The notes beneath the pieces are model-generated. The model did no database searches. It was not told the origin of the DNA and saw only the letters and a list, made by a program, of their open reading frames with translations. A stretch of 13,406 nt of DNA. It comes from a virus (Duplodnaviria; Heunggongvirae; Uroviricota; Caudoviricetes). The stretch lies in IMG/VR virus record IMGVR_UViG_2778261447_000002; one strand, written 5' to 3'. Positions 9,361 to 13,406 of the stretch are shown here, piece after piece (positions within the stretch are counted from its first letter, which is position 1; every line of letters begins with the position of its first letter). Position numbers and translations under genes: made by a program.

Positions 9361-9750
9361 ATGATGTTTCTGAAACAGGACACGTTTAATTATGAAAAAC
9401 AGTCCGTGGTGCTCAGTGAGCTGTCCGGGCTGCAGAGAATTGAATATCTGACGTTTGTTCAGCAGCGAACGGCAAAGTTTGATGCCGGGGAGGGAGAACT
9501 GCCGGAGGCTGAACGACAGATTGCTTTTCTGCGGATGGGGATGGATATCAATGCCTGGCTGGTTTCCCGCTCACTGTGGAATGCGGAACAGTCTCAGGAT
9601 GTTGAGACGCTTTACGCATCCGTTATTACAACATGGTCGTATGATGCCCTGGGTGCGGGGGCAGAGATGGTTCTTTCGCTGAGCGGTATGGGAGCCATTG
9701 AGAATGCCGGGGATTTGGAGCATGAGGTGCTGACGCCGGAAAAGTCCTGA
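9361..9750 (+). CDS. G: Tail assembly chaperone (lambda gpG homolog)
   Basis: MFLKQDTF...LSELSGLQRIEYL parallels lambda G MFLKTESF...LSELSALQRIEHL. RBS GGTGGAG at 9351-9357. Start at 9361 or 9364 (ATGATG). Confidence 0.85.
   Translation: MMFLKQDTFNYEKQSVVLSELSGLQRIEYLTFVQQRTAKFDAGEGELPEAERQIAFLRMGMDINAWLVSRSLWNAEQSQDVETLYASVITTWSYDALGAGAEMVLSLSGMGAIENAGDLEHEVLTPEKS
9738..9744 (+). other. Candidate -1 programmed frameshift (slippery) site for G-T fusion
   Basis: Heptamer G_GAA_AAG in the G frame, 2 codons before the G stop. The -1 frame is open from 9726 onward and encodes the T-like sequence. Lambda uses G_GGA_AAG at the equivalent place. Confidence 0.6.
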
Positions 9751-10088
9751 CGCGGGAAATGCAGTTTGTCATGCGGCTTGCCCGGGAGTTCAGGCGGGCA
9801 GACTGGCGGCGGATGCTGTCGGAAATGTCGGCCACTGAGCTTGGTGAGTGGGGCGATTATTTCCGGATGCAGAGCTTCAGTGATGTGTGGATGGATGCGC
9901 AGTTTGCCTCGCTGAAGGCATTGATCGTGAGAATGGTGTCCGGCAGCAGTGATGCTGCGGTGGCTGATTTCAGCCTTTTACCGGAAGAGAACGGGATACC
10001 GGAGCGAACGGACGAAGAACTGATGCATCTTGGGGAAGGTATTTCCGGAGGTGTGCGTTATGGACCAGATAGCCAACCTGGTCATTGA
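9738..10088 (+). CDS. T: Tail assembly chaperone gpT portion (made only as G-T fusion by -1 frameshift from G)
   Basis: The -1 frame relative to G encodes ...LAREFRRADWRRMLSEMSATELGEW...DFSLLPEE...GGVRYGPD, matching lambda T (LAREMGRPDWRAMLAGMSSTEYADW...DFSLLNRR...GGVRFGPDG). There is no independent RBS. Coordinates are the shifted-frame segment from the slip site to the stop. Confidence 0.8.
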   Translation, partial: GKVLTREMQFVMRLAREFRRADWRRMLSEMSATELGEWGDYFRMQSFSDVWMDAQFASLKALIVRMVSGSSDAAVADFSLLPEENGIPERTDEELMHLGEGISGGVRYGPDSQPGH

Positions 10089-13000
10089 TTTGGGGATTGA
10101 TGCGGCAGAATTTAAAAATGAAATTCCCCGTATCAAAAACCTTCTGAATGGTGCAGCCAGCGATGCAGAACGGTCTTCTGCCCGTATGCAGCGTTTTATG
10201 GAGCGTCAGACTCAGGCCGCCCGGCAGACAACGCAGGCGGCTTCTTCGGCTGCAACAGCCGCATCCGTCCATGCGCAGACGGTGGAGAAGAACGCACAGG
10301 CTCATGAACGCATGGCCCGCGAGGTGGAGAAAACCCGCCAGCGCATGGAGGCGCTGAGCCAGAAAATGCGCGAGGAACAGGCGCAGGCCATGGCTCTGGC
10401 GGAGGCTCAGGATAAAGCGGCTGCTGCGTTTTATCGTCAGATTGACAGTGTGAAACAGGCCAGTGCGGGGCTGCAGGAATTACAGCGTATTCAGCAGCAG
10501 ATCCGACAGGCCAGAAACAGTGGCGGGATTGGTCAGCAGGATTATCTGGCGCTGATTTCTGAGGTTACTGCGAAAACCCGTGTTCTTACACAGGCTGAGG
10601 AAGAGGCTACCCGACAGAAAGTGGCGTTTATCCGTCAGCTTAAAGAGCAGGCAACCCGCCAGAATCTTTCATCTTCTGAGTTGCTTCGTGCCAAGGCAGC
10701 CCAGCTGGGGGTAAGCAGTGCTGCAGAAGTGTATATCCGCAAAATGGAGCAGGCAGGAAAAGCCACGCATTCGCTGGGTCTGAAAAGTGCAGCAGCCCGC
10801 CAGGAGATAGGCGTTCTGATAGGTGAACTGGCCCGCGGCAATTTAGGGGCGCTGAGGGGATCCGGGATAACGCTGGCTAACCGTGCCGGATGGATAGACA
10901 CACTGATGTCACCGAAAGGCATGATGCTTGGCGGGGTTATTGGCGGTATTGCCGCGGCCGTCTATGGTCTGGGTAAAGCCTGGTATGACGGTCAGAAGGA
11001 GGGGGAAGAATTTAACCGCCAGTTGTCGCTGACGGGGCATTATGCCGGAGTCACTGCCGGGCAGCTGTGGACGCTCAGTCGTGCTATTTCCGGGAATGGT
11101 ATCACGCAACATGCTGCAGCCGGTGCGCTGGCGCAGGTGGTGGGGAGTGGTGCATTTCGTGGAAACGATATCGGTATGGTGGCGAGAGCTGCCGCACAGA
11201 TGGAGCGATCGGTTGGCCAGTCGGTCAGCGATACCATAAATCAGTTTAAGCGGCTGAAGGATGATCCTGTAAATGCCGCGAAGGCTCTGGACAATGAGCT
11301 GCATTTTCTTACTGCCACTCAGCTTGAGCAGATACGTGTCCTTGGGGATCAGGGACGGTCCAGTGATGCTGCACGGATAGCCATGTCTGCACTGGCAGAG
11401 GAAACCGGTCGGCGTACTGCGGATATTGATAATAACCTCAATGCGCTTGGCAGTACGCTGAAGTATCTGTCTGATTTGTGGAGTCGTTTCTGGGATGCGG
11501 CCATGAATATTGGTCGTGAAGACTCGCTGGATGAACAGATTACCGCTTTACAGGAGAAAGTGTCGCGGGCGAAAAGACTCCCCTGGACGGCATCATCTTC
11601 TCAGGTTGAATACGATCAGCAGCGTCTTAACGATCTTCAGGAGAAAAAACGCCAGAAGGATTTGCAGGATGCAAAAGAGCAGGCAGAGCGGAATTATCAG
11701 GAGCAACAGAAACGACGTAATGCTGAAAATGCTGCACTGAACCGGATGAATGAAACGGAAGCAGCACGACATCAGCGTGAAATTGCGCGTATTAATGCCA
11801 TGCAGTACGCCGACCAGGCTGTCAGGGATGCGGCGATACAACGTGAAAATGAACGTTACGAGAAAGCCCTGGCATCCGGTAAGAAAAAAACACGCGAAAC
11901 CCGTAATGATGAGGCCACCCGGTTATTGCTGCAGTACAGTCAGCAACAGGCACAGGTGGAAGGACAGATTGCTGCTGCAAGGCAGTCAGCAGGCATTGCC
12001 ACTGAAAAGATGACAGAAGCGCATAAACAGCTTCTGGCTCTGCAGCAGCGCATCAGCGATCTGGACGGGAAAAAACTGACGGCAGATGAAAAGAGTGTGC
12101 TGGCCCGTAAAGATGAACTGATGCAGGCACTGACGCTGCTGGATGTAAAACAGCAGGAGCTTCAGAAACAAACGGCACTCAACGATCTGAAGAAAAAAAC
12201 AATTCAGCTGACCAGTCAACTGGCTGAAGAAGAGCGCGCTCAGCGTCAGCAACATGACCTGGATATCGCCACGGTGGGTATGGGTGATCAGCAGCGGCAG
12301 CGATATCAGGTACAACTGAGTCTTCGCCAGAAATACCAGCAACAGCTGGAGCAGTTGAGGCGGGATAGTGAGCAGAAAGGGACATATAACACGGATGACT
12401 ACAGAAAGGCCGAGCAGGCGCTGACGGAGAGCCTGAACCGACAACTGAATGAGAATCGCCGTTACTGGCAACAGCTTGAAGTTGTGCAGGGTAACTGGAA
12501 AAACGGAGTCCTGCGTGCATTTCAGGATTTTACCGTGGATGCAGACAATACGGCAGGAACAGCAGAACAGGTGTTCTCATCAGCCTTCAGCAACATGGGA
12601 AATGGCCTGGCAACTTTTGTCACTACCGGCAAACTCAACTTCAAATCCTTCACCTCTTCGGTGCTGTCAGATATGGCGAAAATCCTGGCGCAGGCAACCA
12701 TGATGAAATCGATAAAAGGGATTGGCAGTGTACTGGGATTTGATCTCAGCAGCCTTTCCCTGAATGCCAATGGGGGGATTTATCAGTCTGCTGATTTGAG
12801 TCGTTACAGTGGCACGGTGGTTAACCGTCCGACGTTTTTTGCTTTTGCAAAAGGGGCGGGTGTGATGGGAGAAGCGGGACCTGAAGCCATTCTGCCACTG
12901 CGTCGTGGTGCTGACGGTAAGCTGGGTGTTGTGGCACAGATTTGTGGATCAGGTATGGCGATGTTTGCCCCGCAGTACAATATCGAGATTAATAACGACG

Positions 13001-13125
13001 GCATGAACGGGCAGATAGGTCCGGCTGCCCTGAAGGTGGTTTATGACCTCGGGAAAAAAGCAGCAGCGGACTTTATGCAACAGCAGTCCCGTGATGGTGG
13101 TCTGTTCTCCGGAGGTGGACGATGA
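10060..13125 (+). CDS. H: Tail tape measure protein (lambda gpH homolog)
   Basis: About 1021 aa. N-terminus MDQIANLVIDLGIDAAEF vs lambda MAEPVGDLVVDLSLDAARF. C-terminus NNDGMNGQIGPAALKVVYDL...RDGGLFSGGGR is almost identical to lambda H. Long Gln/Ala/Glu/Arg-rich coiled-coil interior. RBS GGAGGTG at 10047-10053; the ORF track starts at an upstream TTG (10030). Confidence 0.92.
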   Translation: MDQIANLVIDLGIDAAEFKNEIPRIKNLLNGAASDAERSSARMQRFMERQTQAARQTTQAASSAATAASVHAQTVEKNAQAHERMAREVEKTRQRMEALSQKMREEQAQAMALAEAQDKAAAAFYRQIDSVKQASAGLQELQRIQQQIRQARNSGGIGQQDYLALISEVTAKTRVLTQAEEEATRQKVAFIRQLKEQATRQNLSSSELLRAKAAQLGVSSAAEVYIRKMEQAGKATHSLGLKSAAARQEIGVLIGELARGNLGALRGSGITLANRAGWIDTLMSPKGMMLGGVIGGIAAAVYGLGKAWYDGQKEGEEFNRQLSLTGHYAGVTAGQLWTLSRAISGNGITQHAAAGALAQVVGSGAFRGNDIGMVARAAAQMERSVGQSVSDTINQFKRLKDDPVNAAKALDNELHFLTATQLEQIRVLGDQGRSSDAARIAMSALAEETGRRTADIDNNLNALGSTLKYLSDLWSRFWDAAMNIGREDSLDEQITALQEKVSRAKRLPWTASSSQVEYDQQRLNDLQEKKRQKDLQDAKEQAERNYQEQQKRRNAENAALNRMNETEAARHQREIARINAMQYADQAVRDAAIQRENERYEKALASGKKKTRETRNDEATRLLLQYSQQQAQVEGQIAAARQSAGIATEKMTEAHKQLLALQQRISDLDGKKLTADEKSVLARKDELMQALTLLDVKQQELQKQTALNDLKKKTIQLTSQLAEEERAQRQQHDLDIATVGMGDQQRQRYQVQLSLRQKYQQQLEQLRRDSEQKGTYNTDDYRKAEQALTESLNRQLNENRRYWQQLEVVQGNWKNGVLRAFQDFTVDADNTAGTAEQVFSSAFSNMGNGLATFVTTGKLNFKSFTSSVLSDMAKILAQATMMKSIKGIGSVLGFDLSSLSLNANGGIYQSADLSRYSGTVVNRPTFFAFAKGAGVMGEAGPEAILPLRRGADGKLGVVAQICGSGMAMFAPQYNIEINNDGMNGQIGPAALKVVYDLGKKAAADFMQQQSRDGGLFSGGGR

Positions 13126-13406
13126 AAACCTTCCGCTGGAAAGTGAAACCCGGTATGGATGTGGCTTCGGCCCCTTCCGTAAGAAAGGTGCGCTTTGGTG
13201 ATGGCTATTCCCAGCGAGCGCCTGCCGGGCTGAACGCTGACCTGAAAACGTACAGCGTGACGCTTTCTGTTCCCCGTTGGGAGGCCACGGCGCTGGAGTC
13301 GTTTCTGGCTGAGCACGGGGGCTGGAAGGCCTTTCTGTGGACGCCGCCTTATGAGTGGCGGCAGATAAAGGTGACCTGCGCAAAATGGTCGTCGCGGGTC
13401 AGTATG
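13122..13406 (+). CDS. M: Minor tail protein M (lambda gpM homolog), 3' end cut by window edge
   Basis: ATG 13122 overlaps the H stop (ATGA). Translation MKTFRWKVKPGMDVASAPSVRKVRFGDGYSQRAPAGLNADLKTYSVTLSVPRWEATALESFLAEHGGWKAFLWTPPYEWRQIKVTCAKWSSRVSM is near-identical to lambda M as I recall it. Open to the last base of the window, so absent from the ORF track. Confidence 0.9.
   Translation, partial: MKTFRWKVKPGMDVASAPSVRKVRFGDGYSQRAPAGLNADLKTYSVTLSVPRWEATALESFLAEHGGWKAFLWTPPYEWRQIKVTCAKWSSRVSM

Follow-up and report, generated by a model that had tools for sequence, protein, structure and literature searches.

The plus-strand gene at 10060–13125 of the window (the whole stretch of viral DNA analysed, 13,406 nucleotides) encodes the intact tail tape measure protein of a lambdoid prophage, a member of the lambda gpH family. 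Its product is longer than lambda H, and a single N-proximal block, found in a subgroup of the family, accounts for almost all of the difference. We consider it probable that this module, residues 57–227, lengthens the ruler, giving a tail of about 36–38 rings compared with 32 in lambda. The relation of tail length to tape measure length is already established, as are this gene and its annotation, while the contribution of the module to tail length, and the size of that contribution, are what we infer here.

The tape measure gene and its surroundings

Translation from the ATG at 10060 to the TGA at 13125 gave 1021 amino acids plus a stop codon, with no internal stops, compared with 853 amino acids in lambda H, which bears out the length of about 1021 residues given in the preliminary description. 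A GGAGG motif lies 7 nt 5' of the ATG, and the tape measure gene of phage mEp460 is annotated with an identical start and length. The longest possible open reading frame begins 30 nt upstream, at TTG 10030. Antisense open reading frames overlapping the gene had no Pfam match.

The protein matched the phrog_24 profile over aa 1–1020 and TIGR01541 over aa 656–981 (285.7 bits; cutoff 104.75). Three Pfam domains were identified: TMP_2 (PF06791; aa 228–426, 10741–11337; E 2.7e-49, 168 bits against a cutoff of 30.2), which contains the hydrophobic segment; TMP_4 in the helical centre of the ruler (aa 616–693, 11905–12138; E 2.4e-17); and Tape_meas_lam_C (PF09718; aa 811–885, 12490–12714; 78.8 bits against a cutoff of 23), which falls within the TIGR01541 match. 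The C-terminal 45 aa (12988–13122) are of the lambda type, with 76% identity to lambda H, and aa 986–1017 matched the resolved gpH fragment in PDB 9e7m chain Ha (E 2e-6). In lambda, the C-terminal helix of gpH sits on gpI in the tail tip (PMC10721106, PMC12617516), and the C-terminal 45 aa are predicted to correspond to this gpI-binding helix.

The neighbouring genes, all on the plus strand, follow the order Z-U-V-G-T-H-M of a lambda-like tail. A gpG-like tail assembly chaperone gene (9361–9750, phrog_42 match) is followed by a T reading frame in the −1 frame relative to G (open frame extent 9726–10088, phrog_39 match), whose last 29 nt are shared with the start of the tape measure gene. A candidate −1 slip site is the heptamer G GAA AAG at 9738–9744: it is in phase, the T frame is open there, and it is kept in mEp460, phi80, mEp043 and Gifsy-2. 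Downstream lies the start of a gpM-like tail tip gene (13125–13406, cut by the end of the window) with 93% identity to lambda M. The tape measure gene is thus located between a G/T chaperone pair with a candidate frameshift site and the gpM gene, as gene H is in lambda.

The tape measure genes of phages mEp460 (gp13, YP_007112087), cdtI, Ayreon, Tritos and phi458 are the same gene, with 95–98.5% nucleotide identity over the full length and the same neighbouring genes. The mEp460 gp13 gene has 98% nucleotide identity and also encodes 1021 aa. Differences within this group were confined to point changes and indels of three to four codons, and cdtI-type variants differ by a few residues. The gene is the normal tape measure of a very common E. 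coli prophage of the mEp460/cdtI type. It is extremely improbable that the extra length is an artefact of a wrong start codon or of two genes fused by a sequencing error, and this reading was rejected: starting at ATG 10060, the N-terminus lines up residue by residue with those of lambda H and phi80, phages isolated independently are annotated with the 1021-aa gene, the module segment occurs in complete E. coli genomes (1844 of 5426), and the frame is open throughout.

Position of the extra length relative to lambda H

The two ends of the protein align with lambda H. By BLASTP, aa 2–56 matched H 3–57 (33% identity, E 4e-8) and aa 289–1021 matched H 122–853 (E 2e-52); a PDB sequence search likewise matched the N-terminal segment (aa 1–56, 10060–10227) to lambda gpH 4–58. 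Between these regions the register shifts. TMP_2 begins at aa 228, compared with aa 54 in lambda, and Tape_meas_lam_C at aa 811, compared with aa 627. The hydrophobic segment (aa 287–308, 10918–10983), aligned by BLASTP with lambda H 122–141, has its hydropathy maximum of 1.58 at aa 287–305, aligned with lambda H 116–140; the hydropathy maximum of lambda H is at aa 113–131. In a global alignment with lambda H, 170 additional residues were placed between aa 54 and 295 and a further 24 at aa 760–783, and the remaining small indels amounted to a net change of about −26.

Because 170 extra residues fall within aa 54–295, the extra length is a single N-proximal block, best bounded by aa 57–227 (10228–10740), and the net 168 extra residues come almost wholly from this module. 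The preliminary description had aligned the N-terminus and the last ~45 residues with lambda, had noted a displaced central hydrophobic segment and had placed the additional stretch at roughly 10150–10850. These points agree with our results: the block lies inside that range, and pairwise alignment did not spread the extra length as small indels.

Lambda gpH has the common N-terminal 56 aa, the hydrophobic segment, TMP_2, Tape_meas_lam_C and the C-terminal tip-binding helix, but no counterpart of aa 57–227, and the two proteins share just 26% identity overall. The stretch of 58 aa that separates the module from the hydrophobic segment differs from lambda in sequence type, and aa 899–960 could not be aligned, with a GEAGPEAILPL motif replacing lambda's sequence.

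We surveyed the 150 best matches to this protein, of which 106 were full-length; this set is biased toward module carriers, and wrong start codons in metagenomic members may distort the lengths of the N-proximal part. Among the 106 full-length members, the N-proximal part averaged 233 aa (sd 78, range 87–423), and its length correlated with total protein length (r = 0.95). Between the core and Tape_meas_lam_C the sd of the length was 21, and from Tape_meas_lam_C to the end it was 13. Length differences in the family thus sit almost entirely before the hydrophobic segment. A local HMM found the full module in 32 of the 106 members and its last third alone in 15 further members and in T1 gp38.

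Structure, conservation and distribution of the module

Module sequences were identified by tblastn in 38 phage records from Escherichia, Salmonella, Klebsiella, Enterobacter, Providencia and Aeromonas, with 46–69% identity to phi80, Gifsy-1/-2, Fels-1, mEp043 and pAEv1818. A multiple alignment placed the module in phi80, Gifsy-2, mEp043 and pAEv1818, and the phrog_24 profile itself includes module columns, with this protein covering profile positions 26–1055 and lambda H 205–1055. The module is a standard part of the phi80/Gifsy/cdtI/mEp460 subgroup, ordinary rather than special.

The closest diverged relatives over the whole length are the tape measures of the Salmonella prophages Gifsy-2, Gifsy-1 and Fels-1, in which the module is 63–69% identical. 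Gifsy-2 is 40–81% identical from aa 104 onward, and its G, T and V proteins are 51–69% identical; its annotated start is truncated, and an in-frame N-terminus is visible upstream in the DNA. The whole N-proximal module is also present in the tape measures of phi80 (1045 aa) and mEp043/mEp213 (1086 aa). The phi80 protein is 50–78% identical over aa 104–426, but the central and C-terminal parts of the phi80 and mEp043/mEp213 proteins are only 18–28% identical. Since the C-terminal 45 aa are of the lambda type rather than the phi80 type (18% identity), the gene is a mosaic. A more distant member of the same family, T1 gp38 (957 aa, PDB 9l9p; E 4.5e-30, identity about 30%), has an N-proximal part of about 256 aa that includes the module's last third, while the first two thirds are absent.

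AlphaFold2 predicted an unbroken helix over aa 15–153 and further helices up to aa 238, interrupted at aa 154–158 and 201–204; modelled as a single long helix, the mean pLDDT was 63. The module is therefore predicted to be all-helical. Hydrophobicity over aa 15–153 had a period of 3.50 residues, with a power of 145; shuffled sequences averaged 9, and not one of the 500 attained the observed value. Over aa 154–227, no heptad periodicity was detected (power 8.8, reached by 212 of 500 shuffles). Continuous heptads within predicted helix were thus confined, in the module, to aa 57–153. The preliminary description had proposed that the extra length was mostly N-proximal coiled coil in a helical stretch; its helical character is consistent with the model and the heptads hold for aa 15–153, while aa 154–227 carry no heptad signal.

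The two parts of the module also differ in conservation. The first (aa 57–103, 10228–10368), an Ala/Gln/Arg/Glu-rich heptad coiled coil absent from lambda, is poorly conserved, with 17–30% identity to phi80, Gifsy-2, mEp043 and pAEv1818. The second (aa 104–227, 10369–10740) is a helical region with 49–69% identity to phi80, Gifsy-2, mEp043 and Aeromonas pAEv1818, compared with 18–31% in the central region of the ruler for phi80, mEp043 and pAEv1818 (Gifsy-2 excepted). It carries the motifs AAFYRQIDSVKQ, QQDYLALIS and LSxxELLRxKAAQLGVSxAAEVYIRK, and 33 of its columns are invariant among 25 homologues with identities down to 40%. Such strong conservation is unlike that of a pure spacer. The PHROG fragment families 11020, 5918 and 24823, all of 'unknown function', cover this segment, and no Pfam or NCBIfam model covering the module was matched.

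A possible but doubtful alternative is that aa 104–227 form a functional domain rather than ruler filling, with any effect on length being secondary. Such a domain could dock a chaperone, terminator or completion protein during assembly, or could contribute to the channel made in the cell envelope by the tape measure once ejected. Identity of 49–52% to phi80, mEp043 and the Aeromonas phage, against 18–31% in the central ruler, together with the invariant columns, the missing heptad signal over aa 154–227, the separate occurrence of the last third in the 15 further members and T1 gp38, and a possible module remnant kept in lambda H (LSRQALAAQKAGIS), all point in this direction. However, lambda and many short-form relatives build working tails without the module, which has no match among known domain models or solved structures. 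The chaperone G did not co-vary with the module (the G protein here shares 36% identity with phi80 G and 37% with lambda G), and the conservation could reflect the inheritance of aa 104–426 as one unit with TMP_2. We therefore only tentatively propose that aa 104–227 (FYRQID, QQDYLALIS, LSxxELLRxKAAQLGVSxAAEVYIRK) might represent a functional domain, so far undescribed, in the tape measures of many siphophages; it would act with a specific assembly or envelope-penetration partner, and lambda would have given up this domain. The preliminary description had raised a functional insertion as an alternative to a longer tail; conservation above that of the central ruler lends some support to a function for aa 104–227, but 'insertion' is misleading for a block that is shared by a large subgroup.

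Two other candidate relationships were rejected. PDB sequence matches to the amyloid precursor E2 domain (E 0.012–0.4) were taken to reflect the similar composition of helical proteins. An origin by internal duplication was not supported, as the module had no significant BLASTP match within itself, elsewhere in the protein or in lambda H (best E 0.015), and the DNA contained neither tandem repeats nor notable direct repeats; a weak likeness between GGIGQQDYLALIS and lambda H GKILQADYNTLMA (aa 428–441) was not significant.

Tail length and the short form in lambda

As the protein serves as a ruler within the growing tube, the module would lengthen the ruler, and would do so at its head-proximal end. 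The first half of the module prolongs the long heptad coiled coil and the second half bears the conserved motifs; the longer ruler would yield a tail tube of about 36–38 rings. Two phages with known ring counts allow calibration: lambda, with 853 aa and 32 rings of 42 Å (PMC10721106), and T1, with 957 aa and about 34 rings of 42 Å (PMC11945409). Whole-length scaling gave 26.7 and 28.1 aa per ring for lambda and T1, respectively, and scaling on the core-to-C-terminus span gave 23.1 and 20.6. On this calibration, the 36–38 rings would plausibly correspond to a tail 13–20% longer than that of lambda, so that the 20 percent increase predicted in the preliminary description would be the upper end of the range. 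A rule of ~0.15 nm per residue has also been given (PMC1796659, citing Katsura and Hendrix). However, T1 has 104 aa more than lambda but only ~2 more rings, and there is thus no fixed rate of residues to length across phages.

Among phages carrying this gene, the only published tail length that we found was a rough figure for Ayreon, whose tape measure gene has the same length and 98% nucleotide identity; the phi458 paper gives no tail measurement. The Ayreon tail was reported as about 120 nm, shorter than lambda's (PMC5764929), a crude value from a genome announcement in which the method, sample size and standard are not given. This figure does not support the prediction of a longer tail.

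It would also fit an alternative in which the extra residues leave the tail at about lambda length, the N-proximal part being folded back, compacted or outside the measured span. The same reading draws on T1, whose N-proximal part is ~142 aa longer than lambda's for only those ~2 additional rings (PMC11945409, PMC10721106), and on the mature lambda tape measure, which falls short of full extension and travels down the tube (PMC12617516). We nevertheless regard it as unlikely, as the two available ring counts fit whole protein length better than the core-to-C-terminus span, length variation in the family is concentrated in the N-proximal region, as expected of a length-setting part, and a single long helix is predicted for the segment. 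Youderian, as related by Katsura and Hendrix in 1984, is said to have found phi80 tails to be longer than lambda's, and a tail-length determinant was reportedly mapped near gene H in hybrids.

The nearest relatives of lambda H over the core-to-C-terminus region in our sample (mEp043, phi80, P0031 and P0033) all carry the module, and lambda H differs from mEp043 by clean block gaps with clearly homologous flanks. Because its closest sampled relatives carry the module, lambda H is more likely a deletion derivative that lost it, and the description of the block as an insertion would be better reversed. Residues 104–227 are conserved enough to merit a domain model of their own. Lambda, the textbook reference, would thus be a short form that probably lost the module, and measuring everything against lambda can make the common form seem unusual.

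Delimiting the extra length of the tape measure protein

The tape measure ORF runs on the + strand from an ATG at 10060, preceded by a GGAGG 7 nt upstream, to a stop at 13125, and the annotated tape measure start of mEp460 is identical. It encodes 1021 aa, as stated in the preliminary description, compared with 853 aa for lambda H. BLASTP aligned aa 2–56 with H 3–57 (E = 4e-8) and aa 289–1021 with H 122–853 (26% identity, E = 2e-52). The Pfam domains TMP_2 and Tape_meas_lam_C were located at aa 228–426 and 811–885, corresponding to lambda H 54–256 and 627–701, respectively. In a global alignment with lambda H, the interval from aa 54 to aa 295 held 170 extra residues, and outside this main block there was an insertion of 24 residues at aa 760–783, with the remaining small indels summing to approximately −26. 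Together, the BLASTP, Pfam, and global alignments indicated that the extra length is a single N-proximal block (aa 57–227, nt 10228–10740), and not a spread of small indels. The proposed displacement of the hydrophobic segment was also confirmed (aa 287–308, versus ~113–140 in lambda), as was the alignment of both ends with lambda. The final 45 aa were 76% identical to lambda H and matched the gpH fragment seen on gpI in the tail-tip structure PDB 9e7m (E = 2e-6).

Near the C-terminus, window 12664–12954 (aa 869–965) matched the RcGTA-type tape measure model NF058675 (E = 1.2e-15), although the match falls short of the model cutoff. This part contains a GEAGPEAILPL motif; the lambda H sequence there is unrelated, and the BLASTP alignment was heavily gapped.

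The block had been described as a helical coiled coil, which held for its first half. AlphaFold2, run on aa 1–300 with 25 homologues, predicted a single helix over aa 15–153 and further helices at aa 159–200, 205–216, and 219–238, with a mean pLDDT of 62.7 (70–86 over aa 30–100 and 140–180). The hydrophobicity of aa 15–153 had one periodicity peak only, sharply defined at exactly 3.50 residues, with a power of 145 that none of 500 shuffles reached (shuffle mean, 9). This indicates an uninterrupted heptad coiled coil whose core positions hold many alanines. The same comparison with shuffles found no heptad signal in aa 154–227. The second half, also helical, is set apart by its conservation. 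Identity over aa 104–227 to phi80, mEp043, and pAEv1818 was 49–52%, and 33 invariant columns lay between aa 117 and 228 among the 25 homologues. Over aa 57–103, identity to phi80, Gifsy-2, mEp043, and pAEv1818 was just 17–30%, and over the central ruler (aa 427–810) identity to phi80, mEp043, and pAEv1818 was just 18–31%. The first half of the block looks like a spacer, while the second half, being strongly conserved, may have a specific role. Co-variation of G with the block was not seen.

Distribution of the block and its gene neighbourhood

A lambdoid prophage late operon makes up the window, in which terminase, portal, and fused protease/capsid genes are followed by Z, U, V, G, T, the tape measure gene, and M. 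The window is 100% identical to part of the E. coli Ch1 chromosome, and of 5426 complete E. coli genomes, 1791 contain at least 80% of it. The head module (window 4501–6720) differs from that of lambda. It has a single long ORF, for which the annotation in relatives is a fusion of a ClpP-like prohead protease with the major capsid protein, an arrangement matching Gifsy-2 and mEp043. A candidate site for the −1 frameshift from G to T, the heptamer G GAA AAG at 9738–9744 (within window 9726–9750), lies in the correct phase directly ahead of the stop codon of G. In mEp460, phi80, mEp043, and Gifsy-2 this heptamer recurs in the same phase, whereas the slip heptamer of lambda is G GGA AAG.

The gene is annotated as tape measure in mEp460, Ayreon, and Tritos (98.0–98.5% DNA identity), phi458 (96.6%), and cdtI (95%). 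The observed gene is a known and common form, and lambda carries the short variant. Nor is the block confined to the phage studied here: a tblastn search with aa 51–233 found it in 38 phage records, including the mEp460/cdtI group, Fels-1, Gifsy-1, and Gifsy-2 (63–69% identity), phi80 (48%), mEp043 and mEp213 (47%), LLS and phages of Klebsiella and Enterobacter (~50%), and Aeromonas pAEv1818 (46%), with a partial match in a Providencia phage. Tape measures of the block-bearing relatives were 975–1086 aa long, and their multiple alignment revealed the conserved block motifs AAFYRQID(S/G)V(K/R)Q, QQDYLALIS, and LSxxELLRxKAAQLGVSxAAEVYIRK. The phrog_24 profile includes the block (columns 26–1055 for the window protein, 205–1055 for lambda H); neither Pfam nor NCBIfam had a model over it, and PDB sequence searches found no solved structure covering it. 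An origin by duplication within the gene was rejected by comparing the block with its own gene and by a DNA repeat search. Block DNA was present in 1844 of the 5426 E. coli genomes and a lambda-type 5′ end in 3713, showing that both forms are common within the species.

Two database records deserve comment. The annotated Gifsy-2 tape measure start (L004 3722–3871, the Gifsy-2 DNA record) looks truncated: in-frame sequence upstream encodes the conserved N-terminus (VGDIVINMDVDTAK...), and the true protein probably extends ~30 aa beyond the annotated 995 aa. For Aeromonas phage AP1, a 254-kb strabovirus, the record MT713136 contains 238 bp 97% identical to window 11794–12031, located in its final 7 kb (L008 2928–3165) amid sparse hypothetical ORFs and tRNA genes. 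This E. coli prophage piece is probably an assembly chimera.

Length variation and the short form of lambda

Among 1.84 billion representative proteins searched exhaustively, 1064 were relatives at E < 1e-30. Small HMMs for five protein parts were mapped onto the 150 best hits and the reference phages. Total length had a standard deviation of 84 aa among 106 full-length proteins, for which start codons of metagenomic members were taken as predicted, unchecked. The part ahead of the hydrophobic core varied from 87 to 423 aa (233 ± 78 aa) and correlated with total length (r = 0.95), while the standard deviations were 21 aa for the core-to-lam_C span and 13 aa for the lam_C-to-end span. This N-proximal part is 285 aa in the window protein, 287 in phi80, 338 in mEp043, ~256 in T1, and 114 in lambda. 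The HMMs detected the full block in 32 proteins and only its last third in another 15, although block carriers are over-represented because the best 150 hits are those most similar to the window protein.

From core to C-terminus, the nearest relatives of lambda H in the survey set were mEp043 (42% identity), phi80 (41%), and the survey proteins P0031 (41%) and P0033 (37%), all four with the full block. Against mEp043, lambda H showed clean block gaps of ~157, 26, and 35 aa with clearly homologous flanks. Since the nearest relatives carry the block and the gaps are clean, its loss in the lambda lineage is the simpler reading of these sequences.

Predicted tail length and the mosaic gene

That tail length follows tape measure length is established in lambda as well as in other phages, with deletions and duplications shifting tail length by ~0.15 nm per residue (PMC1796659, citing Katsura and Hendrix 1984 and Katsura 1987). 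Natural counterparts of Katsura's mutants are found among E. coli prophage tape measures of lambda type (P0259–P0378; lambda gene, L001:10542–13100). These are 87–98% identical to lambda H and 805–953 aa long. They are distinguished by block indels of +50, +50+50, +21, +7, −48, −42, and −22 aa, every one of which falls within lambda residues 250–600.

Rings have been counted for two family members, both with a 42 Å rise: lambda (853 aa, 32 rings; PMC10721106) and T1 (957 aa, ~34 rings; PMC11945409), giving 26.7 and 28.1 aa per ring, respectively. Applied to 1021 aa, these ratios predict 36–38 rings, and the tube would be ~151–161 nm long, 13–20% longer than that of lambda (134 nm). The rise per ring is likely to be similar, because the major tail protein is 54% identical to gpV and of equal length. 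The two calibration points were fitted better by whole-length scaling than by the core-to-C-terminus span, weakly favouring an N-proximal part that counts as ruler. The only published tail measurement we found for a phage carrying this gene, 'long flexible tails (+/-120 nm)' for Ayreon, comes from a genome announcement giving no method or standard (PMC5764929) and does not support a longer tail. A tail longer than that of lambda, probably by 13–20%, is a plausible prediction.

In lambda, the assembly steps outlined here are known, and the tape measure, once ejected on infection, helps to build the envelope channel (PMC12617516). By homology, several tape measure copies coated with G and GT would reach out from the tip complex, with their C-terminal helices gripped by the gpI homologue. 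The tube would then polymerise around them until the N-terminal end, where the terminator would bind. The block occupies the head-proximal third of the ruler. On infection, the tape measure would be ejected and contribute to the envelope channel.

The gene is a mosaic: aa 104–426 are phi80-like (52–78% identity), and the centre resembles the Gifsy group only. Compared with lambda H, the N-terminal 56 aa showed 37% identity and the parts other than the two ends 18–28%, while the start of M was 93% identical to lambda M. As the last 45 aa and M are lambda-like and the remainder is not, a recombination joint lies within the 3′ end of the gene (window 12988–13406). With the joint at this position, the ruler's tip-binding end stays linked to the tip genes.
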